In this document: in pieces, positions 329-42,237 of the stretch | How positions within the stretch are numbered: position 1 is the first letter of the stretch | Layout: every line of letters begins with the position of its first letter | Origin: Escherichia coli | GTDB lineage: Bacteria; Pseudomonadota; Gammaproteobacteria; Enterobacterales; Enterobacteriaceae | Strand: one strand, 5' to 3' | NCBI RefSeq assembly: GCF_003018255.1 | Contig: NZ_CP027440.1 | DNA: 64,000 nucleotides | The notes under the pieces: generated by a model | Told to the model about the DNA's origin: nothing | Databases searched by the model: none | The model's input: only the letters and a program-made list of their open reading frames with translations | Program-made: the position numbers and the translations under genes

Positions 329-1365
329 TTTTGTTCCTGTTCTTCGCGCTTGCGTTCTGCTGCCAGCGCCGCTTTACGTTTTTGTTCGGCTTCTTCCCAG
401 GCTTCATAGGCGTTAACGATACGCGCCACCACCGGGTGACGAACCACGTCTTCGCTGTGGAAGAAGTTAAAGCTGATCTCTTCGACATCAGCCAGTACTT
501 CGATGGCATGACGCAAACCAGACTTGGTATTACGCGGCAGGTCGATCTGTGTGACGTCGCCGGTGATAACCGCTTTTGAGTTAAAACCGATACGGGTCAG
601 GAACATCTTCATCTGTTCGATGGTGGTGTTCTGGCTCTCATCAAGAATGATAAACGCGTCGTTCAGCGTACGACCACGCATATAGGCCAGCGGTGCGACT
701 TCAATAACGTTGCGCTCAATCAGTTTCTCGACTTTCTCAAAGCCCAGCATTTCAAACAGCGCGTCGTACAGCGGGCGCAGATACGGGTCTACTTTCTGGC
801 TTAAATCGCCAGGCAGGAAGCCCAGTTTCTCACCGGCTTCTACTGCCGGACGAGTCAGCAGAATACGGCGAATTTCCTGACGCTCCAGGGCATCAACTGC
901 CGCAGCCACTGCCAGGTAGGTTTTACCCGTACCCGCCGGGCCAACGCCGAAGGTAATGTCATGGTCGAGAATATTGGCGATGTACTGCGCCTGGTTTGGC
1001 GTGCGCGGCTTAATTACGCCGCGTTTGGTTTTGATATTGACCGCTTTGCCGTACTCCGGCACGCTCTCCGCGCTTTGCTCCAGTACCCGCGCTTCTTTAA
1101 TCGCAAGGTGGATCTGTTCCGGTTCGATATCCTGAATCTGACCGCGCATCGGGGCAGTATCGACATACAGGCTACGCAGAATGTCTGCCGCAGCGGTGAC
1201 GCAAATCGGACGGCCGGTCAGTTTAAAGTGGTTATCGCGGCGATTGATTTCGATGCCGAGACGGCGTTCGAGTTGTTTGATGTTGTCATCAAACGGGCCG
1301 CACAGGCTCAACAGACGCGCATTGTCTGCTGGCTCCAGGGTGATTTCGCGAGTGTCTATGTTCAA
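325..1365 (-). CDS. ybeZ: PhoH-like ATPase YbeZ
   Basis: Track ORF 325..1404; Walker A motif GPAGTGKT. Start placed at TTG 1365 ([11 protein letters not shown]...) preceded by AGAGGA; the longer ORF start at 1404 is the alternative. Confidence 0.85.
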
Positions 1366-1517
1366 ACCGTTCCTCTTATCTGTATGCCGCCGGAAGCTGA
1401 ACATTCACCGGCCTATAAGGAAATTATTCACGCCACAGGAAAAAGGCGCAAGCATTGCGATAAAGATGGGGATAAAGAGAGAAAAAACAAGGCCCACCGG
1501 AACGGCGGGCCTGAGAA

Positions 1518-2942
1518 TTACGGCTGATAATAACCCACGCCAAGGTCGTTTTCTTTGCGGGTACGGGCAATCACCGATTCCGGTGTTTCTGCCACGCGCA
1601 GACCCATTTCATCTTCAGTTCGCACCACTTTACCGCGCAGAGAGTTCGGGTAGACGTCGGTAATTTCTACATCGACGAATTTACCGATCATATCCGGCGT
1701 ACCTTCGAAGTTGACGACGCGGTTATTTTCAGTACGGCCGGAAAGCTCCATGATGCTCTTACGCGATGTACCTTCTACCAGAATACGCTGGGTGGTACCG
1801 AGCATCCGGCGGCTCCATGCCATTGCTTGCTGATTGATACGTTCTTGTAGAATATACAGGCGCTGCTTCTTCTCTTCTTCCGGAACATCATCAACCATAT
1901 CGGCGGCTGGTGTACCTGGACGAGCGGAGAAGATAAAGCTGTAGCTCATGTCGAAATTGACGTCGGCAATCAGCTTCATCGTTTTCTCGAAGTCTTCGGT
2001 GGTTTCGCCAGGGAAGCCAACGATGAAGTCAGAACTGATCTGAATATCCGGACGCGCCGCACGCAGCTTACGGATGATCGCTTTGTACTCCAGCGCTGTA
2101 TGGGTACGTCCCATCAGGTTCAGAATGCGATCGGAACCGCTCTGTACCGGCAGATGCAGGAAGCTCACCAGCTCCGGCGTGTCGCGGTACACTTCGATGA
2201 TATCGTCGGTGAATTCGATCGGATGGCTGGTGGTAAAGCGAATACGATCGATCCCGTCGATCGCCGCAACCAGACGCAGCAGATCGGCAAACGATCCGGT
2301 GGTGCCGTCGTAGTTCTCACCGCGCCAGGCGTTCACGTTCTGGCCGAGCAGGTTAACTTCACGCACGCCCTGAGCAGCAAGCTGGGCAATCTCAAACAGA
2401 ATATCGTCGGACGGACGGCTTACCTCTTCACCACGGGTGTAAGGCACTACGCAGTAGGTGCAATATTTATTGCAGCCTTCCATGATGGAGACAAACGCGG
2501 TCGGCCCTTCGGCGCGCGGTTCCGGCAGACGGTCAAACTTCTCGATTTCCGGGAAGCTGATATCTACAACCGGGCTGCGGTCGCCGCGCACGGAGTTGAT
2601 CATCTCCGGCAGACGGTGCAGCGTTTGCGGCCCAAAAATAATATCGACATAGTGGGCGCGCTGGCGAATGTGCTCGCCTTCTTGCGATGCCACGCAGCCG
2701 CCGACGCCGATAATCAGGTCTGGATTCTTCTCTTTTAACAGTTTCCAGCGACCCAACTGATGGAAGACTTTTTCCTGAGCCTTCTCGCGGATTGAGCAGG
2801 TGTTCAGCAGCAGCACATCCGCTTCTTCCGCCACGTCGGTCAGTTGATAGCCGTGGGTGGCATCCAGCAGATCGGCCATCTTCGATGAATCGTACTCGTT
2901 CATCTGACAGCCCCAGGTTTTAATATGGAGTTTTTTGGTCAT
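1518..2942 (-). CDS. miaB: tRNA-i6A37 methylthiotransferase MiaB
   Basis: 474-aa ORF beginning [19 protein letters not shown], radical-SAM family, ATG confirmed at 2942. Confidence 0.95.
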
Positions 2943-3087
2943 CGACTTGCTCTTGCGAAATAGTAGCCAGGAATGCAGGGCGCATAGTGTAATGCTTTGC
3001 TGCCGTTGTGACCAGTATGAGCGTTATCAGCCCTTGGGGGTAAAAATCCTGTAAACTTAAAGCATATTGCTAACAGGATGATTGACC

Positions 3088-4263
3088 ATGACAAATCAAC
3101 CAACGGAAATTGCCATTGTCGGCGGAGGAATGGTCGGCGGCGCACTGGCGCTGGGACTGGCTCAGCACGGATTTTCGGTAATGGTTATCGAACATGCCCA
3201 ACCTGCACCGTTTGTCGCTGACAGCCAGCCGGACGTGCGGATCTCGGCGATTAGTGCGGCTTCGGTATCATTGCTTAAAGGGTTAGGGGTCTGGGATGCA
3301 GTACAGGCTATGCGTTGCCATCCTTACCGCAGACTGGAAACGTGGGAGTGGGAAACGGCGCATGTGGTGTTTGACGCCGCTGAACTTAAGCTACCGTTGC
3401 TTGGCTACATGGTGGAAAACACTGTCCTGCAACAGGCGTTGTGGCAGGCGCTGGAAGCGCATCCGAAAGTAACGTTACGTGTGCCAACCTCGCTGATTGC
3501 ACTGCATCGCCATAATGATCTTCAGGAGCTGGAACTGAAGGGCGGTGAAACGATCCTCGCGAAGCTGGTGATTGGTGCCGACGGCGCAAATTCGCAGGTG
3601 CGACAGATGGCGGGAATTGGCGTTCATGCCTGGCAGTATGCGCAGTCGTGTATGTTGATTAGCGTACAGTGTGAGAACGATCCCGGCGACAGCACCTGGC
3701 AGCAATTTACCCCGGACGGACCGCGTGCGTTTCTGCCGTTGTTTGATAACTGGGCATCGCTGGTGTGGTATGACTCTCCGGCGCGCATTCGCCAGTTGCA
3801 GAATATGAATATGGCGCAGCTACAGGCGGAAATCGCGAAGCATTTCCCGTCGCGTCTGGGTTACGTGACACCGCTTGCCGCTGGTGCGTTTCCGCTGATA
3901 CGTCGCCATGCGTTGCAGTATGTGCAACCAGGGCTTGCTCTGGTGGGCGATGCCGCGCATACCATCCATCCGCTGGCGGGGCAGGGGGTGAATCTTGGTT
4001 ATCGTGATGTCGATGCCCTGATTGACGTTCTGGTGAACGCCCGCAGCTACGGCGAAGCGTGGGCCAGTTATCCTGTGCTCAAGCGTTACCAGATGCGGCG
4101 TATGGCGGATAACTTTATGATGCAAAGTGGTATGGATCTGTTTTATGCCGGATTCAGCAATAATCTGCCACCGCTGCGTTTTGTGCGTAATCTTGGTTTG
4201 ATGGCGGCGGAGCGTGCTGGCGTGTTGAAACGTAAGGCGCTGAAATATGCGTTAGGGTTGTAG
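3088..4263 (+). CDS. ubiF: FAD-dependent ubiquinone biosynthesis hydroxylase UbiF
   Basis: ORF with MTNQPTEIAIVGGGMVGG dinucleotide-binding N-terminus; ATG at 3088 (the track begins 2 codons earlier at TTG). Confidence 0.92.
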   Translation: MTNQPTEIAIVGGGMVGGALALGLAQHGFSVMVIEHAQPAPFVADSQPDVRISAISAASVSLLKGLGVWDAVQAMRCHPYRRLETWEWETAHVVFDAAELKLPLLGYMVENTVLQQALWQALEAHPKVTLRVPTSLIALHRHNDLQELELKGGETILAKLVIGADGANSQVRQMAGIGVHAWQYAQSCMLISVQCENDPGDSTWQQFTPDGPRAFLPLFDNWASLVWYDSPARIRQLQNMNMAQLQAEIAKHFPSRLGYVTPLAAGAFPLIRRHALQYVQPGLALVGDAAHTIHPLAGQGVNLGYRDVDALIDVLVNARSYGEAWASYPVLKRYQMRRMADNFMMQSGMDLFYAGFSNNLPPLRFVRNLGLMAAERAGVLKRKALKYALGL

Positions 4264-4293
4264 CCTCACAACATTGCTGGATGCATGCCAACC

Positions 4294-4365
4294 GTAGGTC
4301 GGATAAGACGCGGCAGCGTCGCATCCGACTTTGAAGGATAAGACGAGTCAACATCGCATTCGGCA
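4294..4365. repeat. REP-like palindromic unit(s) downstream of ubiF
   Basis: gtaggtcggataagacgcggcagcgtcgcatccgac resembles the REP consensus, followed by a partial second unit. Confidence 0.5.
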
Positions 4366-4385
4366 TTGAATATACGCAGAAAAGC

Positions 4386-4412
4386 AAAAAGCTCGCCGAG
4401 GCGAGCTTTTTT
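4386..4412. terminator. Bidirectional rho-independent terminator (ubiF on +, tRNA operon on -)
   Basis: A-run, GCTCGCC-ga-GGCGAGC hairpin, then T-run; it reads as a terminator on both strands. Confidence 0.65.
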
Positions 4413-4416
4413 AATG

Positions 4417-4491
4417 TGGCTGGGGTACGAGGATTCGAACCTCGGAATGCCGGAATCAGAATCCGGTGCCTTACCGCTTGGCGATACCCCA
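4417..4491 (-). tRNA. glnX: tRNA-Gln (anticodon CUG)
   Basis: 75-nt reverse complement matches the E. coli tRNA-Gln sequence ending CCA; anticodon loop UUCUGAU; ends verified against overlapping ORF codons. Confidence 0.95.
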
Positions 4492-4528
4492 ACTGGGTGC
4501 ACTTACAAGGTAAGCGTCTTGAATAAAT

Positions 4529-4603
4529 TGGCTGGGGTACGAGGATTCGAACCTCGGAATGCCGGAATCAGAATCCGGTGCCTTACCGCTTGGCGATACC
4601 CCA
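4529..4603 (-). tRNA. glnV: tRNA-Gln (anticodon CUG)
   Basis: Identical 75-nt copy of the CUG isoacceptor. Confidence 0.95.
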
Positions 4604-4651
4604 ACAAATTGGTTTTTGAATTTGCCGAACATATTCGACACATTCAGAATT

Positions 4652-4728
4652 TGGTGGCTACGACGGGATTCGAACCTGTGACCCCATCATTATGAGTGAT
4701 GTGCTCTAACCAACTGAGCTACGTAGCC
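4652..4728 (-). tRNA. metU: Elongator tRNA-Met (CAU)
   Basis: 77-nt reverse complement GGCTACGTAGCTCAGTTGGTTAGAGCACATCACTCATAATGATGGGGTCACAGGTTCGAATCCCGTCGTAGCCACCA. Confidence 0.95.
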
Positions 4729-4743
4729 AGATTGTTTCTTCGA

Positions 4744-4818
4744 TGGCTGGGGTACCTGGATTCGAACCAGGGAATGCCGGTATCAAAAACCGGTGCCTTA
4801 CCGCTTGGCGATACCCCA
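4744..4818 (-). tRNA. glnW: tRNA-Gln (anticodon UUG)
   Basis: 75-nt tRNA-Gln with anticodon loop UUUUGAU. Confidence 0.95.
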
Positions 4819-4852
4819 ATAACCGGGCGGTGAACCGCTTATTCGAAGAATA

Positions 4853-4927
4853 TGGCTGGGGTACCTGGATTCGAACCAGGGAATGCCGGTATCAAAAACC
4901 GGTGCCTTACCGCTTGGCGATACCCCA
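4853..4927 (-). tRNA. glnU: tRNA-Gln (anticodon UUG)
   Basis: Second copy of the UUG isoacceptor. Confidence 0.95.
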
Positions 4928-4950
4928 TCCGTACAACGCTTTCTGGTGAA

Positions 4951-5035
4951 TGGTGCGGGAGGCGAGACTTGAACTCGCACACCTTGCGGCGCCAGAACCT
5001 AAATCTGGTGCGTCTACCAATTTCGCCACTCCCGC
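4951..5035 (-). tRNA. leuW: tRNA-Leu (anticodon UAG), long variable arm
   Basis: 85-nt reverse complement GCGGGAGTGGCGAAATTGGTAGACGCACCAGATTTAGGTTCTGG...CACCA. Confidence 0.93.
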
Positions 5036-5043
5036 AAAAAAGA

Positions 5044-5120
5044 TGGTGGCTACGACGGGATTCGAACCTGTGACCCCATCATTATGAGTGATGTGCTCTA
5101 ACCAACTGAGCTACGTAGCC
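5044..5120 (-). tRNA. metT: Elongator tRNA-Met (CAU)
   Basis: 77-nt copy of the metU sequence; first gene of the operon. Confidence 0.95.
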
Positions 5121-5160
5121 ATCTTTTTTTTCGCGATACCTTATCGGCGTTGCGGGGCGC

Positions 5161-7420: not shown

Positions 7421-8173
7421 TCAGATAACGTCGATTTCAGCGACCGATGGGTAAATCCAACTTGGGCGGAACGGCATACTGTCGATATCGTCGAGTGACG
7501 AAACACCAGAAAGCACCAGAATCGTCTCCAGACCGGCCTGGAAGCCCGCCAGAATATCGGTACGCAAGTTATCGCCGACAATCACCGTTTCTTCCGAATG
7601 CGCCTGCATTTTGTTTAATGCCGCGCGGATGATCCACGGACTCGGCTTTCCAACATAGAACGGTTTGCGCCCGGAGATTTTCTCGATCCCTGCACACAAC
7701 GCGCCACAGGCGGGATAAAAACCGCGCCCGTGGGTGTCCGGGTTGGTGGCGATAAAGCGTGCGCCGTTAGCGACGAAATAGGCTGCTTTATGCATCATGT
7801 CCCAGTTGTAGGAACGCGTTTCGCCAACAATCACAAAATCAGGGTTCACATCGGTAATAGTGAAACCGGCTTTGTACAGTTCATGAATCAGTGCGCCTTC
7901 GCCCACCACATACGCTTTCTTGCCTTCCTGGCGACGCAGGAAATCGGCGGTCGCCATCGCGGAGGTATAAAACACGCTATCCGGTACATCGACACCGGCA
8001 GTGGCAAAGCGATTCGCCAGATCTTGCCCGGTCTGCGAAGGATAGTTGGTCAGCAACACCAGCGGCAGGCCTTTATCCATAATCCCGTGCAAAAATTCCG
8101 CTGCACCCGGTACGGCGACGTTATCGTGCATCAGCACGCCGTCGATATCGCAAATTACATTTTTAATGGTCAT
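7421..8173 (-). CDS. umpH: UMP phosphatase (HAD family, NagD)
   Basis: 250-aa ORF MTIKNVICDIDGVLMHDN... with the HAD DxDGV motif. Confidence 0.93.
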   Translation of the reverse strand: MTIKNVICDIDGVLMHDNVAVPGAAEFLHGIMDKGLPLVLLTNYPSQTGQDLANRFATAGVDVPDSVFYTSAMATADFLRRQEGKKAYVVGEGALIHELYKAGFTITDVNPDFVIVGETRSYNWDMMHKAAYFVANGARFIATNPDTHGRGFYPACGALCAGIEKISGRKPFYVGKPSPWIIRAALNKMQAHSEETVIVGDNLRTDILAGFQAGLETILVLSGVSSLDDIDSMPFRPSWIYPSVAEIDVI

Positions 8174-8220
8174 GGACTACCCAGAATATTGACAACAATA
8201 AGCGCCACTATAAAAGCACA

Positions 8221-9441
8221 TTAATTTTCCAGCAAATGCTGGAGCAAAATACCGTTGAGCATGGCGCGTTTTACCAGCGCAAAAGCGCCGATTGCTGAGC
8301 GGTGATCCAACTCAGAACGTACCACCGGTAGATTAGTACGAAACGCCTTCAGCGCCTGGGTATTAATGCAGCTTTCAATAGCAGGGAGCAGCACTTTATC
8401 GGCTTCGGTGATTTCTCCAGCAATAACAATTTTTTGCGGATTAAATAAGTTGATAGCAATGGCGATGGTTTTACCCAGATGACGACCGACATATTCAATC
8501 ACTTCCGAGGCCAGGCTATCGCCTTTGTTCGCGGCTTTGCAGATAGTTTTGATGGTGCAGTCGTCCAGTGGCACACGGCTCTGGTAGCCCTGCTTTAACA
8601 GATTCAACACCCGTTGTTCAATGGCAGCATTGGCGGCGATAGTTTCCAGGCAGCCAAAGTTGCCGCAGTGGCAGCGTTCACCCAGCGGTTCGACCTGAAT
8701 ATGGCCAATTTCACCGACGTTGCCGTTGCGCCCGATAAAAATTCGCCCGTTAGAGATAATCCCGGCCCCGGTTCCGCGATGGACACGCACCAGAATGGAG
8801 TCTTCGCAATCCTGACTTGCACCGAAGTAGTGCTCTGCCAGCGCCAGACTGCGGATATCGTGGCCGACAAAACAGGTCACTTTAAAACGCTCTTCCAGTG
8901 CTTCAACCAGCCCCCAGTTTTCTACCTGAATATGCGGCATGTAATGAATTTTGCCGCTGTCCGGGTCTACAAGCCCTGGCAGGATCACCGAAATCGCGAT
9001 CAGCTCGCGTAGCTTGCGCTGGTAGCTATCAATAAACTGAGCAATGGCATTCAGCAGGGCATGTTCCAGCGTCTGCTGGGTACGTTCCGGCAGCGGGTAA
9101 TGTTCTTCTGCCAGCACTTTGCTGCTGAGATCAAACAAGGTGATGGTGGCGTCGTGACGACCAAGCCGTACGCCGATTGCGTGGAAATTGCGGGTTTCGG
9201 TGACGATGGAGATAGCGCGGCGGCCCCCGGTGGAGGCCTGCTGATCAACTTCTTTGATCAGCCCGCGTTCGATAAGCTGACGCGTAATTTTGGTTACGCT
9301 GGCGGGGGCAAGCTGACTTTGCTCGGCAATCTGAATCCGCGAGATTGGCCCGTACTGGTCAATCAGGCGATAAACCGCCGCGCTGTTAAGCTGTTTTACG
9401 AGATCAACATTACCTATCTGAGCTTGTCCGCCTGGTGTCAT
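8221..9441 (-). CDS. nagC: N-acetylglucosamine repressor NagC (ROK family)
   Basis: 406-aa ORF MTPGGQAQIGNVDLVKQLNSAAVYRLIDQYGPISRIQIAEQS... Confidence 0.95.
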   Translation of the reverse strand: MTPGGQAQIGNVDLVKQLNSAAVYRLIDQYGPISRIQIAEQSQLAPASVTKITRQLIERGLIKEVDQQASTGGRRAISIVTETRNFHAIGVRLGRHDATITLFDLSSKVLAEEHYPLPERTQQTLEHALLNAIAQFIDSYQRKLRELIAISVILPGLVDPDSGKIHYMPHIQVENWGLVEALEERFKVTCFVGHDIRSLALAEHYFGASQDCEDSILVRVHRGTGAGIISNGRIFIGRNGNVGEIGHIQVEPLGERCHCGNFGCLETIAANAAIEQRVLNLLKQGYQSRVPLDDCTIKTICKAANKGDSLASEVIEYVGRHLGKTIAIAINLFNPQKIVIAGEITEADKVLLPAIESCINTQALKAFRTNLPVVRSELDHRSAIGAFALVKRAMLNGILLQHLLEN

Positions 9442-9449
9442 ACTTTCTC

Positions 9450-11458
<2,009 letters not shown>

Positions 11459-33087: not shown

Positions 33088-34761
33088 TCAGGAGAGATAT
33101 TCCGCCACCGGACCAAGCGCCAGGGCAGGGATAAAGGTCAGTGCGCCAACCAGCAACACGGTGCCGATTAACAGGCCAACAAACAGCGGGCCGTGCGTTG
33201 GCAGCGTGCCGGAGCTGGCGGGCTGGCTCTTTTTACTCACCAGCGAACCGGCAATTGCCATCACCGGGATAATTACCCCGAAGCGACCGACAAACATGCA
33301 GAACGCCAGCAAACAGTTCCAGAATGGAGAGTTGGCGCTTAATCCGGCAAAGGCGCTGCCGTTGTTGTTAGCGGCGGATGACACGGCGTACAGCACTTCG
33401 CTAAAACCATGCGGGCCAGGGTTGAGCATGGCGCTACGTCCGGCGTCGGTCATCATTGCCAGCGCCGCGCCCATCAGCGCCAGCGTTGGGGTGACCAGAA
33501 TCGCCAGCGCGGTCAGTTTCATCTCGCGTACGTCGATTTTTTTACCCAGATATTCCGGTGTACGACCAATCATCAGCCCAGCAATAAACACCGCCAGCAG
33601 GACAAACAGCATCATGCCGTAAAGACCAGAACCGACACCGCCGAACACCACTTCACCAATTTGCATCAGCCACATCGGCACCATGCCACCAAGAGCGGTA
33701 AACGAATCATGCATCGCAATCACCGCGCCACAGGAAGCCGCCGTAGTCACGACCGCAAACAGGCTACTGACCAGCACGCCGAAACGACTCTCTTTACCTT
33801 CCATATTGATGCTGCTGTCCGCGCCCAGTGCCAGCAGATGCGGATTACCCTGAACTTCTGCCCACATCACCACGCCTGTGCAGATGATAAAAATCACTGA
33901 CATCGCCCACAGCAACATGCGCCCCTGACGGCGATCGCCCGCCACTTCGCCAAAGGCAAAGCACAGCGCTGTTGGGATCAAGAAGATCGCCAGCATCTGC
34001 ACGAAGTTGGTCAGTGCGGTTGGGTTTTCAAACGGATGCGACGAGTTGGCATTAAAGAAGCCACCGCCGTTAGTGCCGAGCATCTTGATCGCTTCCTGAG
34101 AAGCTACAGGCCCCATGGGTAACAGCTGTTGCGCTCCTTCAACGGTATTCACCGCCTGATAGGGCAGAAAGTTTTGCAGCGCACCTTGTTGAATAAAAAA
34201 CAATGCGATCAACAACGCCACAGGGACTAGCACCCATAACGTGATGCGTAGCAGATCGACCCAGGCATTCCCGAGTGTGCTCATGCTCTGGCGGGTAAAT
34301 GCACGTATGAGGGCAAAAATCACCGCAATCCCGCTGGCGGCAGAAAGAAAGTTTTGCACCGTTAAGCCCGCCATCTGGCTGAAATAGCTCAACGTGGTTT
34401 CACCGCTGTAAGATTGCCAGTTGGTATTTGTGACAAAGCTGACGGCGGTATTCAGCGCCAGATCCCACGACAGTCCTGGCAACTGCTGTGGATTAAGCGG
34501 CAGATAGTGCTGACCGAGCAACATAAAAAACAGCACCGCCAGCCCCAGTATATTCAGGCCAAGAATGGCTGAGAGATACTGCTTCCAGTTCATCTCGCGG
34601 TCAGAGACGCCAAGCGCGCGAAAAAGTACGCGCTCAACGCCCGTCGTACCGGGAAGAGGAATGTCATTAATCAGCCGCGCCAGCCCGCTGCCTAAAGGAC
34701 GCGCCAGCACCATTAACACCAGTAAAAACGTGGCAATCAGTAAGAACCCTTGCGCAGCCAT
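33088..34761 (-). CDS. kdpA: Potassium-transporting ATPase channel subunit KdpA
   Basis: Track ORF 33088..34905 trimmed to the ATG at 34761: [32 protein letters not shown]..., 557 aa. Confidence 0.92.
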
Positions 34762-34850
34762 CAGAACGCCTCCGCATTGATCAGGGCATAAACCAGATAA
34801 CCCAGTAATAAAAACACCAGCAACACGCCGGCTATCACGCCTGCACTCAC
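34761..34850 (-). CDS. kdpF: Small membrane subunit KdpF (29 aa)
   Basis: GTG at 34850 gives (M)[28 protein letters not shown]; its stop overlaps the kdpA ATG by 1 nt. Confidence 0.65.
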
Positions 34851-34923
34851 AGTGCACCTCCAGTGGCCTAAAAGTGATACCGGAAGAGTAGAATTCTGGC
34901 TGCAAAGATTTCGCAAAAATCTG

Positions 34924-34953
34924 CGGGCGGGGTGTAAAAAAAGTATAAAAATG
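34924..34953 (-). promoter_or_regulatory. KdpE binding site of the kdpFABC promoter
   Basis: Minus strand reads CATTTTTATACTTTTTTTACACCCCGCCCG, which I recall as the KdpE-protected sequence, about 75-105 bp upstream of the kdpF start. Confidence 0.55.
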
Positions 34954-35162
34954 GCAAAAGCCATGATTTAACTAATGTTTAGTATTAATTTAACCTTTGT
35001 GTAACTTAATTACGGTATGAATGTAAATAAACCATCAATAAGCAAAAATAAGTGGTCGGATGAGTAGTAAAATTACACAAAAGGCGGTACTATTTTCATC
35101 AGATAAACAAATTCATTTTTCCGGTGCTATTCACCGGGTAGATACAAAAGGGGGAGAAAAGT

Positions 35163-35369
35163 ATGGAACTCTACAGAGAATATCCTGCATGGCTTATCTT
35201 TTTACGCCGTACTTATGCGGTTGCAGCGGGCGTTCTGGCGCTGCCTTTCATGCTTTTCTGGAAAGACCGCGCCCGCTTTTACAGCTACCTGCACCGCGTC
35301 TGGTCGAAAACCAGCGATAAACCGGTGTGGATGGATCAGGCCGAAAAGGCGACTGGTGATTTTTACTGA
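35163..35369 (+). CDS. ybfA: Small conserved protein YbfA (DUF2517)
   Basis: 68-aa [71 protein letters not shown]. Confidence 0.85.
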
Positions 35370-35391
35370 TTGCTGAGTTCTGAATACATTG

Positions 35392-35427
35392 AAAACCGCC
35401 AGCGGAAACGCTGGCGGTTTTTTTTGT
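35392..35427 (+). terminator. ybfA rho-independent terminator
   Basis: AACCGCCAGCG-gaaa-CGCTGGCGGTT hairpin followed by T9. Confidence 0.7.
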
Positions 35428-35613
35428 ATCAGGAAGATGTTCAGAGGAATATTTAGACACCGTTATACCAATCGAAACATATATTCATGAAATATATATA
35501 AATATTTTCCTAATTGTTCTTATCTGACAGATATCTCACTTAAGGCTTTCTTATAAATCTGTAGGGTTTCGCCTGTCAGCAGACAAATAACCCGATAAAA
35601 CAAGGATGAGCAG

Positions 35614-38600
35614 ATGAGCGGAAAACCGGCGGCGCGTCAGGGCGACATGACGCAGTATGGCGGTAGCATTGTTCAGGATTCAGCCGGGGTACGTATTGGT
35701 GCCCCCACCGGCGTGGCCTGTTCGGTGTGCCCCGGCGGGGTGACGTCCGGCCATCCGGTCAATCCGCTGCTCGGTGCGAAGGTCCTTCCCGGCGAAACCG
35801 ACCTTGCCCTGCCCGGCCCGCTGCCGTTCATCCTCTCCCGCACCTACAGCAGTTACCGGACAAAAACGCCCGCGCCGGTGGGGAGCCTCGGCCCCGGCTG
35901 GAAAATGCCTGCGGATATCCGCTTACAGCTGCGCGATAACACACTGATACTCAGTGATAACGGCGGCAGAAGCCTGTATTTTGAGCACCTGTTTCCCGGT
36001 GAGGACGGTTACAGCCGCAGCGAGTCACTCTGGCTGGTGCGCGGCGGCGTGGCGAAACTGGATGAAGGTCACCGGCTGGCCGCACTCTGGCAGGCGCTGC
36101 CGGAAGAGCTTCGCCTGAGTCCGCATCGTTATCTGGCGAAGAACAGTCCGCAGGGGCCGTGGTGGGTATTCGGCTGGTGTGAGCGGGTGCCGGAGGCGGA
36201 TGAGGTGCTGCCTGCGCCGCTGCCGCCGTACCGGATACTGACCGGGCTGGTGGACCGCTTCGGGCGCACACAGACGTTTCACCGTGAGGCTGGCGGCGAA
36301 TTCAGCGGCGAAATCACCGGCGTGACCGACGGCGCAGGCCGTCACTTCCGGCTGGTACTGACCACGCAGGCGCTGCGGGCAGAAGAGGCCCGGCAGAAGG
36401 CCACTTCCGGCGGGACGGAACCGTCCGCTTTTCCTGATACCCAGCCGGACTACACGGAATATGGCCGGGACAACGGTATCCGTCTGTCTGCCGTGTGGCT
36501 GACGCACGACCCGGAATACCCGGAGAATTTACCTGCCGCGCCGCTGGTACGCTATGGCTGGACGCCGCGCGGCGAACTGGCGGCGGTGTATGACCGCAGC
36601 AATACACAGGTGCGCAGCTTTACTTACGATGATAAATACCGGGGCCGGATGGTGGCGCACCGTCACACGGGCCGGCCGGAAATCCGTTACCGTTACGACA
36701 GTGACGGGCGGGTGACAGAACAGCTAAACCCGGCAGGCTTAAGCTACACGTATCAGTATGAGAAAGACCACATCACCATCACCGACAGCCTGGACCGCCG
36801 TGAAGTGCTGCACACGCAGGGCGAAGGCGGGCTGAAGCGGGTGGTGAAAAAGGAACACGCGGACGGCAGCGTCACGCAGAGTCAGTTTGACGCGGTGGGC
36901 AGGCTTAAGGCACAGACGGATGCCGCAGGCCGGACGACTGAGTACAGCCCGGATGTGGTGACCGGACTCATCACGCGCATCACCACGCCGGATGGCAGGG
37001 CATCGGCGTTTTACTATAACCACCACAGCCAGTTAACGTCAGCCACCGGGACTGACGGGCTGGAGTTGCGCAGGGAATATGATGAATCCGGCCGTCTGAT
37101 TCAGGAAACTGCCCCTGACGGCGATATCACCCGCTACCGTTATGATAATCTACACAGTGAATTACCCTGCGCAACGGAAGATGCCACCGGCAGCCGGAAA
37201 ACCATGACATGGAGCCGTTACGGTCAGTTGCTGACCGTCACTGACTGTTCCGGTTATGTAACCCGTTATGACCATGACCGTTTTGGTCAGATGACGGCGG
37301 CGCACCGCGAGGAAGGGCTGAGTCAGTATCGCGCATACGACAGCCGTGGACAGTTAATTGCGGTGAAAGACATGCAGGGCCATGAAACGCGGTATGAATA
37401 CAACGCCGCCGGTGACCTGACCGCCGTCATTGCCCCGGACGGCAGCAGAAACGGGACACAGTACGATACGTGGGGAAAGGCCATCCGTACCACGCAGGGT
37501 GGTCTGACGCGCAGTATGGAATACGATGCTGCCGGACGGGTCATCCGCCTGACCAGTGAAAACGGCAGCCACACCACCTTCCGTTACGATGTACTCGACC
37601 GGCTGATACAGGAAACCGGCTTTGACGGCCGCACACAGCGTTATCATCACGACCTGACCGGTAAACTTATCCGCAGCGAGGATGAGGGGCTGGTCACCCA
37701 CTGGCACTATGACGAAGCAGACCGCATCACGCACCGCACCGTGAAGGGTGAAACCGCAGAACAGTGGCGGTACGACGAACGCGGCTGGCTGACACAAATC
37801 AGCCATCTCAGCGAAGGCCACCGGGTGACGGTGCATTACGGGTATGATGAGAAAGGCCGCCTGACCGGTGAGCGCCAGACGGTACATCACCCGCAGACGG
37901 AAGCACTGCTCTGGCAGCATGAGACCAGACATGCGTACAACGCGCAGGGGCTGGCGAACCGCTGTATACCGGACAGCCTGCCCGCCGTGGAATGGCTGAC
38001 TTACGGCAGCGGCTGGCTGGCAGGCATGAAACTCGGCGACACACCGCTGGTGGATTTCACCCGTGACCGCCTGCACCGGGAAACGCTGCGCAGCTTCGGC
38101 CGTTATGAACTCACCACCGCTTATACCTCTGCCGGGCAGTTACAGAGCCAGCACCTGAACAGCCTGCAGTATGACCGCGATTACACCTGGAACGACAACG
38201 GCGAACTCATCCGCATCAGCAGCCCGCGACAGACCCGGAGTTACAGCTACAGCGACTCCGGCAGGCTGACCGGCGTCCACACCACCACCTCAAATCTGGA
38301 TATCCGCATCCCGTATGCCACGGACCCGGCAGGTAACCGCCTGCCCGACCCGGAGCTGCACCCGGACAGCACCCTCAGCATGTGGCCGGATAACCGTATC
38401 GCCCGTGACGCGCACTATCTTTACCAGTATGACCGTCACGGCAGGCTGACAGAGAAAACCGACCTCATCCCGGAAGGGGTTATCCGCACGGATGATGAGC
38501 GGACTCACCGGTACCATTACGACAGCCGGCACCGGCTGGTGCACTACACGCGGACACAATATGCAGAGCCGCTGGTCGAAAGTCGCTATCTTTACGACCC

Positions 38601-39300
38601 GCTGGGGCGCAGGGTGGCAAAACGGGTATGGCGGCGTGAACGGGACCTGACGGGCTGGATGTCGCTGTCACGGAAACCGGAAGTGACCTGGTACGGCTGG
38701 GACGGCGACCGGCTGACCACAATACAGAACGACAGAACCCGCATCCAGACGGTTTATCAGCCGGGGAGCTTCACGCCACTCATCAGGGTCGAAACTGCCA
38801 CCGGTGAGCTGGCGAAAACGCAGCGCCGCAGCCTGGCGGATGCGCTTCAGCAGTCCGGCGGTGAAGACGGTGGCAGTGTGGTGTTCCCGCCGGTGCTGGT
38901 GCAGATGCTCGACCGGCTGGAAAGTGAAATCCTGGCTGACCGGGTGAGTGAGGAAAGCCGCCGCTGGCTGGCATCGTGCGGCCTGACGGTGGAGCAGATA
39001 CAAAACCAGATGGACCCGGTGTACACGCCGGCGCGAAAAATCCACCTGTACCACTGCGACCATCGCGGCCTGCCGCTGGCGCTTGTCAGCACGGAAGGGG
39101 CAACAGAATGGTGCGCAGAATACGATGAATGGGGCAACCTGCTGAATGAAGAGAACCCGCACCAGCTGCAGCAGCTCATCCGCCTGCCGGGTCAGCAGTA
39201 TGATGAGGAGTCCGGCCTGTATTACAACCGCCACCGCTATTATGACCCGCTGCAGGGGCCAGGGAAAGATCACGTAACGCTGCTTTTTTGTACTAAATAA
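35614..39300 (+). CDS. rhsC: Rhs-family protein (RhsC-like core), C-terminally truncated: no DPxGL cleavage motif and no toxin domain
   Basis: 1228-aa GC-rich ORF with a PAAR-like N-terminal motif (KPAARQGD) and many YD repeats; it ends ...[11 protein letters not shown] plus 13 unrelated residues ([13 protein letters not shown]) and a stop. Confidence 0.85.
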
Positions 39301-40312
39301 TTCGCATTTTATGTTTAAAAATTGAGATATTCCTCATTACCTAAAGCTGTTTTTCATTGCTTATACATGATCAAATACTCCTTACATAATTAAGGAGAAC
39401 AAAATGGAACTTAAAAAATTGATGGAGCATATTTCTATTATCCCAGATTACAGACAAGCCTGGAAAGTGGAACATAAATTGTCTGATATTCTACTGTTGA
39501 CTATTTGTGACGTTATTTCTGGTGCAGAAGGTTGGGAAGATATAGAGGATTTTGGGGAAACACATCTCGATTTTTTAAAACAATATGGTGATTTTGAAAA
39601 TGGTATTCCTGTTCACGATACCATTGCCAGAGTTGTATCCTGTATCAGTCCTGCAAAATTTCACGAGTGCTTTATTAACTGGATGCGTGACTGCCATTCT
39701 TCAGATGATAAAGACGTCATTGCAATTGATGGAAAAACGCTCCGGCACTCTTATGACAAGAGTCGCCGCAAGGGAGCGATTCATGTCATTAGTGCGTTCT
39801 CAACAATGCACAGTCTGGTCATCGGACAGATCAAGACGGATGAGAAATCCAATGAGATCACAGCTATCCCGGAACTTCTTAACATGCTGAATATTAAAGG
39901 AAAAATAATCACAACTGATGCGATGGGTTGCCAGAAAGATATTGCAGAGAAGATACAAAAACAGGGCGGTGATTATTTATTCGCTGTAAAAGGAAACCAG
40001 GGGCGGCTAAATAAAGCCTTCGAGGAAAAATTTCCGCTGAAAGAATTAAATAATCCAGAGCATGGCAGTTACGCAATGAGTGAAAAGAGTCACGGCAGAG
40101 AAGAAATCCGTCTTCATATTGTTTGCGATGTCCCTGATGAACTTATTGATTTCACGTTTGAATGGAAAGGGCAGCCATGGACAGAAAATATCTGGCGTCA
40201 GTCCTTGCGGGGAGCGTGCTTTCGTAATTTTGCCCTGCTACAACAGGATTAACTTCACAAACATCATTTGCCAACGTCTACACTTACTCCTGTTAATATC
40301 TCAGGAGCAGTA
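39301..40312 (+). mobile_element. H-repeat (ISAs1-family) element remnant with an internal deletion
   Basis: AT-rich left end, then an ISAs1-like transposase ORF; the expected C-terminus ([18 protein letters not shown]) is present but in the +1 frame near 40171..40230, implying an internal deletion of roughly 0.3 kb. Confidence 0.65.
39404..40252 (+). pseudogene. ybfD: H-repeat-associated (ISAs1-family) transposase, frameshifted by an internal deletion (YbfD-like)
   Basis: 282-aa [35 protein letters not shown]...; about 250 aa are transposase-like, then an out-of-frame tail [26 protein letters not shown]. Confidence 0.7.
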
Positions 40313-40822
40313 ATGAATCAGCAACGATTTGATGAAAGCACTCTAATCCGTATCTTCGCGCTTTATGAGTTACATCGACTGAAAGAACATGGCTTAACGC
40401 GCGGGGCACTCAACGATTATCACAGCCGCTATAAACTCGTCTTTCTGGCCCATTCCCAGCCCGAGTACCGCAAACTTGGCCCGTTCGTGGCTGATATTCA
40501 CCAGTGGCAAAATCTGGATGACTATTACAACCAGTACCGCCAACGCGTAGTTGTTTTGCTTTCTCACCCCGCCAACCGACGTGACCACACCAATGTTTTG
40601 ATGCACGTTCAGGGTTATTTTCGCCCTCATATTGATTCCACAGAACGCCAGCAGCTGGCGGCGCTTATCGACAGTTATCGCGGTGGCGAGCAACCGCTTC
40701 TTGCGCCGCTGATGCGTATCAAACACTATATGGCGCTTTATCCTGACGCCTGGCTTTCAGGGCAGCGTTATTTCGAACTTTGGCCGCGTGTGATTAACTT
40801 GCGCCATTCAGGAGTTTTATGA
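40313..40822 (+). CDS. ybgA: DUF1722 protein YbgA (cotranscribed with photolyase)
   Basis: Track ORF 40268..40822 trimmed to the ATG at 40313 (CAGGAG RBS): MNQQRFDESTLIRIFALYELHRLKEHG..., 169 aa. Confidence 0.88.
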   Translation: MNQQRFDESTLIRIFALYELHRLKEHGLTRGALNDYHSRYKLVFLAHSQPEYRKLGPFVADIHQWQNLDDYYNQYRQRVVVLLSHPANRRDHTNVLMHVQGYFRPHIDSTERQQLAALIDSYRGGEQPLLAPLMRIKHYMALYPDAWLSGQRYFELWPRVINLRHSGVL

Positions 40823-42237
40823 CTACCCATCTGGTCTGGTTTCGCCAGGATTTACGTCAGCATGATAATCTCGCGCTGGCTGCCGCCTGCCGCAATTCGT
40901 CTGCAAGCGTGCTGGCGTTGTATATCGCTACACCACGCCAGTGGGCGGCGCATAATATGTCGCCGCGTCAGGCTGAATTTATCAATGCACAACTGAACGG
41001 GCTACAAATCGCGCTGGCGGAAAAAGGCATTCCTTTGCTGTTTCATGAAGTGGATGACTTTGCCGCCAGCGTCGAAATAGTTAAACAGGTGTGCGCGGAA
41101 AATCGTGTTACCCATCTGTTTTATAACTATCAGTATGAGGTGAATGAGCGGGCGCGGGATGTGCAGGCTGAGAGGGCGCTGCGTAACGTGGTGTGTGAAG
41201 GATTTGACGACGGCGTGATCCTGCCGCCGGGGGCGGTGATGACTGGCAATCATGAGATGTACAAAGTCTTTACGCCATTTAAAAACGCCTGGCTTAAACG
41301 GCTGCGAGAAGGGATGCCGGAGTGCGTCGCTGCGCCAAAAGTACGTAGTAGCGGATCGATAGATCCCGCGCCATCCATTACGCTGAATTATCCTCGTCAG
41401 CCTTTCGATACTGCGCATTTCCCGGTGGAAGAGAAAGCGGCGATTGCGCAATTACGCCAGTTTTGCCAGAACGGTGCCGGAGAGTATGAGCAACAGCGAG
41501 ATTTCCCTGCGGTAGAAGGCACCAGCCGTTTGTCCGCCAGCCTGGCAACGGGCGGGTTATCGCCTCGCCAGTGTTTGCATCGCCTGTTGGCGGAACAGCC
41601 GCAGGCGCTGGACGGTGGGGCCGGTAGTATCTGGCTTAATGAGCTGATCTGGCGCGAGTTTTACCGTCATCTGATAACGTATTACCCCTCGCTGTGTAAA
41701 CATCGTCCGTTTATTGTCTGGACCGACCGCGTGCAGTGGCAGAGCAATTCCGCGCATTTAAAGGCCTGGCAGGAAGGCAAAACGGGATACCCGATTGTTG
41801 ATGCTGCCATGCGTCAGCTTAACAGCACCGGCTGGATGCATAACCGGCTACGGATGATTACAGCCAGTTTTTTGGTGAAAGATTTATTGATCGACTGGCG
41901 CGAAGGTGAGCGATATTTCATGTCGCAGCTGATTGATGGTGATTTGGCAGCCAATAACGGTGGCTGGCAGTGGGCCGCTTCAACCGGAACCGATGCAGCG
42001 CCGTATTTTCGTATTTTTAACCCGACAACCCAGGGCGAGAAATTTGACCGTGAGGGCGAGTTTATCCGCCAGTGGCTACCGGAACTGCGCGATGTGCCAG
42101 GGAAAGTGGTGCATGAGCCGTGGAAGTGGGCGCAGAAAGCAGGTGTGACGCTGGATTATCCGCAACCGATAGTTGATCACAAAGAGGCAAGGCTGCGAAC
42201 GCTGGCAGCGTACGAAGAAGCGAGGAAAGGAGCCTGA
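40819..42237 (+). CDS. phr: Deoxyribodipyrimidine photolyase
   Basis: 472-aa ORF MTTHLVWFRQDLRQHDNLALAAA...; overlaps the ybgA stop (ATGA). Confidence 0.95.
   Translation: MTTHLVWFRQDLRQHDNLALAAACRNSSASVLALYIATPRQWAAHNMSPRQAEFINAQLNGLQIALAEKGIPLLFHEVDDFAASVEIVKQVCAENRVTHLFYNYQYEVNERARDVQAERALRNVVCEGFDDGVILPPGAVMTGNHEMYKVFTPFKNAWLKRLREGMPECVAAPKVRSSGSIDPAPSITLNYPRQPFDTAHFPVEEKAAIAQLRQFCQNGAGEYEQQRDFPAVEGTSRLSASLATGGLSPRQCLHRLLAEQPQALDGGAGSIWLNELIWREFYRHLITYYPSLCKHRPFIVWTDRVQWQSNSAHLKAWQEGKTGYPIVDAAMRQLNSTGWMHNRLRMITASFLVKDLLIDWREGERYFMSQLIDGDLAANNGGWQWAASTGTDAAPYFRIFNPTTQGEKFDREGEFIRQWLPELRDVPGKVVHEPWKWAQKAGVTLDYPQPIVDHKEARLRTLAAYEEARKGA

Follow-up and report, generated by a model that had tools for sequence, protein, structure and literature searches.

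We analysed a 64,000-nucleotide segment of an Escherichia coli chromosome (contig NZ_CP027440.1), hereafter the window, which extends from ybeY to sucC and carries a truncated rhs gene. The gene lies between kdpFABC-ybfA and ybgA-phr-dtpD, which is the rhsC site of strain K-12. Its immediate upstream neighbor is ybfA, and no vgrG gene is adjacent to it (Table 1). The open reading frame (ORF) encodes 1228 amino acids and is intact over 3.6 kb, without a frameshift or an internal stop. The core terminates in ...YYDPLQG, after which the ORF closes within 13 foreign residues derived from an insertion sequence (IS), so that nothing resembling a toxin tip follows core residue 1215. An incomplete H-repeat of the ISAs1 family directly abuts the core. 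The GC content of the rhs block is 57-67% (positions 35500-38999), compared with 41.8% in the left flank (35000-35499) and 40.6-46.2% in the right flank (39000-40499). A first-pass annotation made from the window sequence had described these same traits, namely a GC-rich block, an ORF ending in 13 unrelated residues and a core abutting an H-repeat, and all three hold.

Profile searches place the protein among the Rhs proteins. The NCBIfam profile NF041261 (RHS_core) scored 2531.4 bits against a cut-off of 2000, which assigns the protein to this family, and the match spans only profile positions 1-1229 of 1261. YD_repeat_2x was found in five stretches (E 9e-41), and RHS_repeat from Pfam was matched as well. 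In the Pfam scan, which covered the first 400 residues, DUF6531 was significant at residues 46-123 (E 3e-18). The Rhs core proposed in the first-pass annotation is thus well supported. The PAAR-like N-terminus that it also proposed fares less well, as the PAAR_motif match is weak (E = 0.18) and extends over 19 residues (residues 2-20 on model positions 51-69 of 70). A PAAR domain or a linked vgrG would serve to load such a protein onto a type VI secretion system.

The elements that would make this gene a polymorphic toxin are missing. Neither a C-terminal tip nor a cognate immunity gene directly downstream is found in the window. A search for the motif D[PS]xG[LI] in all six frames of positions 39000-40900 yielded none, and the same six frames held no continuation of the rhs ORF that a frameshift could restore. 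Between the stop codon at 39300 and the start of the ISAs1 ORF at 39404 lie 103 non-coding bases with no ORF and no immunity gene. The absence of the DPxGL motif, the toxin and the immunity ORF had been noted in the first-pass annotation, and these searches bear it out.

We compared the window with 5,426 complete E. coli genomes. The ybgA-phr segment is at least 99% identical in three of them, including JNE112863 and JNE23-011. These two genomes are near-clonal to the window, with 100.0% identity over 12.5 kb upstream of the gene and no mismatches in positions 34118-35613. The downstream 12,169 bp hold three mismatches; one falls on the diagnostic site of a repeat described below, which leaves two true single-nucleotide polymorphisms (SNPs). 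Identity to DETEC-S792 is 98.7-99.7%, and all 64 kb of the window run collinear with that genome except for one indel. The identity is uneven, at 98.7% over the upstream 35 kb (window 1-35311) and 99.9% in the 12.5 kb beside rhs (locus L005). This unevenness points to a mosaic recombination history around the locus.

At the same site, JNE112863, JNE23-011, DETEC-S792 and the more distant 2014C-3075 all carry a longer locus. Its order is ybfA, a 1399-amino-acid Rhs protein, a 189-amino-acid protein, an NTF2-fold immunity protein, a DUF6258 protein, a core remnant, a truncated ybfD and ybgA. The immunity proteins are identical across these long-form relatives. The core remnant is a 231-bp ORF, which annotation gives as an RHS core fragment without an N-terminus, and the H-repeat has already cut its 191 bp of core sequence. 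In 218 genomes, at least 80% of a query running from the DUF6258 gene through the remnant to ybfD was covered. In JNE23-011 the rhs gene itself (L003 1492..5696) shows a 5-bp length difference and carries a frameshift annotation. Within the lineage, this rhs copy has been inactivated a second time, independently, and such a frameshift in the same gene suggests that the copy is under weak constraint.

The sister Rhs protein shows what the window protein lacks. The two are co-linear to residue 1215, after which the sister protein continues with DPIGL, 17 amino acids, DSMGL and a 152-amino-acid tip. The continuation that the first-pass annotation gave for RhsC of K-12 is correct, as it is found in this gene of the sister genomes. 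In a characterised Rhs protein, two DPLGL motifs spaced by 17 residues precede the cleavage site, and the second contains the catalytic aspartate (PMC8636562). The sister protein matches the whole of TIGR03696 (RHS repeat-associated core domain, positions 1-76), whereas the 1228-amino-acid protein matches only positions 1-42 of 76 and is without the complete domain, its two DPxGL-type motifs and the catalytic aspartate. Among solved structures, the terminal block of the sister protein aligns with Rhs and TcC shells at their C-terminal end, and the tip has no match. Neither the tip nor the 189-amino-acid neighbor matched a Pfam or NCBIfam profile. The neighbor has a hydrophobic, signal-like N-terminus, judged by reading its sequence, and is the putative cognate immunity gene. 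The motifs, the tip and the immunity genes thus lie in relatives at the exact site where the window lacks them, which supports the earlier description of a decayed polymorphic-toxin locus.

The window is the long form with exactly 2,850 bp taken out, and this is the only structural difference across the 64 kb. Positions 35000-39259 align without gaps to positions 883-5142 of the sister locus L002, and positions 39069-40900 align to 7802-9633, so that the two alignments overlap by 191 bp. In L002 the overlap corresponds to two copies of a repeat in direct orientation (4952-5142 and 7802-7992) that share 190 of 191 bases. The only site that distinguishes them corresponds to window position 39085, where the window has the main-core allele, G, and mismatches the remnant copy of the sister. 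Up to the repeat the window has the sequence of the main copy, and beyond 39259 that of the remnant copy, with no junction-specific sequence. The deleted DNA was not relocated within the window, where the 2.66-kb segment was found nowhere else. The fused junction was contiguous in none of the 5,426 genomes; matches with full coverage were split into two or three pieces spanning extra DNA. The exact 1228-amino-acid protein is on record from a single NCBI contig. We therefore consider it very probable that the locus is an rhs element from which 2,850 bp between these repeats were deleted recently and in this strain only.

Table 1. Features of the truncated rhs element and its flanks (window positions)
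Feature	Position	Strand	Description
Truncated rhs gene at the ybfA-ybgA (K-12 rhsC) site	35614..39300	+	1215 core codons, 13 IS-derived codons and stop
Surviving single copy of the 191-bp direct repeat	39069..39259	+	Two copies in sisters: 3' end of main core and downstream remnant
Predicted crossover interval	39086..39259	+	174 bases identical in both repeat copies; three-way alignment
Foreign 13-residue tail and stop	39259..39300	+	H-repeat left end; first codon straddles the junction
3'-truncated ISAs1-family H-repeat (ybfD)	39260..40174	+	Profile match; homology to complete ISEc1 copies
Gene-conversion tract in the core	36072..37072	+	29 sites, plus one at 37388
ybfA, left flank of the element	35163..35369	+	
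ybgA, right flank of the element	40313..40822	+	

The right side of the fused junction is the end of an insertion sequence. Core homology stops at 39259 and IS homology (CAGGGAAAGATCA...) begins at 39260. Since the left end of the IS begins there, the 13 tail residues are IS sequence read in the frame of the core. We identify the break as the left end of the H-repeat because alignments to ISEc1 copies in the unrelated loci ydcC and yhhI start at the counterpart of window positions 39257-39260, and because the same end is joined to another core position in the nik-locus rhs of JNE112863. The element is incomplete. Its left end is present, and homology to complete ISEc1 copies stops at approximately 40170-40174. 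The transposase ORF (39404..40252) extends beyond the remnant and scores 291.6 bits against the NF033564 profile (transpos_ISAs1, cut-off 70), matching only profile positions 1-229 of 314. In the sister genomes, too, ybfD is annotated as incomplete, with its C-terminus missing.

The nikR-yhhJ site of JNE112863 (L007 8001..14316) is the position of rhsB in K-12. The rhs gene there bears the annotation RhsC and is accompanied by a ybfB immunity gene. Behind them lies a 486-bp core fragment that is cut by the same H-repeat left end. Because this cut falls elsewhere in the core, there must be more than one site at which H-repeats entered rhs cores.

The core that precedes the junction differs from that of the near-clonal sister at 35 sites in 3.6 kb. 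Thirty sites, those of the tract in Table 1 together with position 37388, match the nik-locus rhs paralog of JNE112863 (L007 8001..12194) and not its ybfA-locus copy. Gene conversion between rhs paralogs accounts for this tract of about 1 kb. Six further substitutions, at 35678, 36140, 36169, 37161, 38426 and 38607, are private to the window, being found in none of five other rhs cores. Of the six, five are nonsynonymous, and the density of the six is roughly 20 times that of the flanks. A common paralog does not account for 36140 and 36169, as none of the 5,426 complete genomes matches the stretch containing both at more than 98.0%. Candidate origins of the private substitutions are a private donor paralog, recombination-linked mutation and consensus errors.

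Several points weigh against a genuine deletion. The fused allele is seen in one genome only, and an artefact of assembly or culture would look alike in an assembly without reads. The conversion tract and the six private substitutions in the same core could signal consensus problems in a multi-copy repeat. The disarming of the gene, moreover, is read from missing motifs and would be presumed on that basis. An assembly artefact would mean that the strain is truly long-form and that the assembler or polishing collapsed the two 191-bp copies and dropped 2.85 kb. The breakpoint, which falls exactly in a repeat with 174 identical bases, the allele's uniqueness and the odd substitutions beside it would all fit such a collapse. 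We nevertheless regard it as unlikely. The contig is chromosome-sized (4,892,666 bp), which argues for a finished chromosome, and the remainder of the 64-kb window is fully collinear with relatives. Any long read and most read pairs would span a 191-bp repeat, assemblers usually break at such repeats instead of deleting unique sequence, and the reading frame is clean.

The polarity of the change follows from the relatives. Two near-clonal sisters and two genomes at increasing distance all have the long form, which is therefore ancestral by parsimony. The opposite direction would require that the short form came first and that integration of a circular core-tip intermediate into a core already cut by the H-repeat supplied the relatives with the tip and immunity block. 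Integration is the formal mirror image of excision (PMC2935791) and would yield the same 191-bp duplication. However, no more than 0-2 SNPs separate the sisters from the window in some 25 kb of flanking sequence, and all four long-form genomes carry identical immunity proteins. Several independent, identical insertions would be needed, or else one very recent loss in any case, and the short form occurs in no other genome of the 5,426. We give this scenario hardly any credence. The two findings that would have overturned the earlier description of decay, a restorable toxin continuation or an ancestral short form, are thus both contradicted by the data.

We propose the following history for the deletion. 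The ancestor would have carried a full rhs gene, consisting of the core, two DPxGL-type motifs and the 152-amino-acid tip, followed by the 189-amino-acid putative immunity gene and two orphan immunity-type genes (NTF2-fold and DUF6258). The last part of the ancestral locus would have been the 191-bp remnant of an older core copy, cut at codon 1216 by the ISAs1-family H-repeat. An old IS insertion into that earlier copy would have set the truncation point. The main core would then have recombined homologously, through its 3' end, with the remnant, and everything between them would have been removed, either by an intramolecular exchange that released a circle or by an unequal exchange between sister chromosomes. 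The deletion would have moved the old core/IS junction onto the full-length core, which now runs into the IS end. The first-pass annotation held that the core was cut off just before its cleavage motif. The position is correct, but the cut was not made in this gene, being instead the junction of the old remnant and the H-repeat transferred by the deletion.

The product would keep its YD-repeat shell, but the toxin and its cognate immunity gene would be gone, along with the second half of the C-terminal plug and aspartyl-protease domain. The protein is likely disarmed, because the captured fragment leads into an IS end and not into a toxin. The 1228-amino-acid protein would form a shell without half of its C-terminal plug, and the missing motifs suggest that it could neither cleave itself at the C-terminus nor deliver a toxin. 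The strain would also have lost immunity to the toxin encoded by its sisters, if that toxin is ever deployed. The tip-less core might instead be kept for its own use, as an acceptor for new tips or as an empty structural shell. The ORF is intact over its length, and an incoming core-tip circle would still find full homology at the locus (PMC2935791). So little time has passed since the event, though, that an intact ORF is no sign of selection, and the frameshift of the sister strain in the same gene, the five nonsynonymous changes among six private substitutions and the incomplete plug all argue the other way. Retention for such a use therefore appears very improbable. Under the displacement model discussed below (PMC2935791), it is plausible that the tip-less locus could act as a recombination endpoint able to capture new tips, as the first-pass annotation had suggested.

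The region to the right of the rhs element is unusually divergent. The ybgA-phr segment (40268-42237) is a rare haplotype, with at least 99% identity in three of the 5,426 genomes and 90-95% identity in 4,711. The kdp-speF region, located 5-17 kb from ybgA-phr, is 95-99% identical to 5,295 genomes. The low ybgA-phr identity had raised a cryptic Escherichia clade as a possible source of the strain, which the identity of the kdp region rejects.

For an element named after rearrangement hot spots, the deletion represents ordinary decay, in that the gene family, the site and the recombination route have all been described before. Beyond annotation its importance is small, and the gene is best labeled a tip-less rhs pseudogene and not a toxin. 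It is nonetheless a clean natural example of repeat-mediated tip and immunity loss for which near-clonal genomes of the parental type are at hand. It also shows that the main gene can be disarmed by a core remnant at an IS junction, which acts as a trap. Three immunity-type genes kept by its closest relatives are missing from the strain, which may be sensitive to their toxin if the system is active.

Among known systems, the closest in position is the K-12-type RhsC element, which consists of rhsC-ybfB, a core fragment, H-repeats and ybfD. It occupies the same site with the same flanks (kdp-ybfA and ybgA-phr), has a core of the same clade (the window is 96.2% identical in nucleotides to the rhsC core of HS-02) and closes in the same ybfD H-repeat remnant. 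In contrast to the window, which has no tip or immunity gene, the locus of HS-02 has an intact 1394-amino-acid RhsC and the ybfB immunity gene. The K-12-type core fragment does not share the IS junction of the window, as the HS-02 fragment reads on through DPIGL.

In mechanism, the nearest counterpart comes from Salmonella Typhimurium LT2, where recombination between main and orphan rhs sequences deletes the main tip and its immunity gene (PMC3967940). In both cases the main core is fused to whatever follows a downstream core-homologous fragment. The parental locus here likewise has a direct core repeat flanking the tip and immunity genes, of which the window keeps one hybrid copy. The homology in LT2 is 522 bp at 95% identity (PMC3967940), compared with 191 bp at 99.5% (190/191) here. 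Whereas the fusion in LT2 activates an orphan toxin, the remnant in the window leads to an IS end, and no new orphan toxin has been placed on the main core.

The window also resembles a product of the displacement model of Jackson et al. 2009 (PMC2935791). In that model, recombination of a core with a downstream, unattached core fragment yields a circle with a piece of core, the tip and the intervening genes, and the window resembles the chromosomal product of this excision step. We tentatively raise the possibility, which we hold to be less probable than not, that the window is a natural snapshot of that step, the scar after a 2.85-kb circle left the chromosome. Such a circle would hold 191 bp of core, the tip, its immunity gene and the two orphan immunity genes. 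The window differs from the model in presenting the chromosome only, and an unequal exchange between sister chromosomes would leave the same chromosome. If the snapshot is real, the strain pair would allow direct detection of the long-proposed circular intermediate, and the cost of losing immunity to the toxin of a sibling would become measurable. For the circular-intermediate model, the modest value of the locus thus lies in the pair of a short form and a near-clonal long form.

Finally, inactivated rhs genes are common in E. coli, for instance rhsE in K-12 and frameshifted rhs genes in strain W, and H-repeats are found at the ends of rhs loci (PMC3032704). Compared with these, the window differs in its route of inactivation: no frameshift is involved, and a repeat-mediated deletion appears to have removed the whole tip and immunity block.

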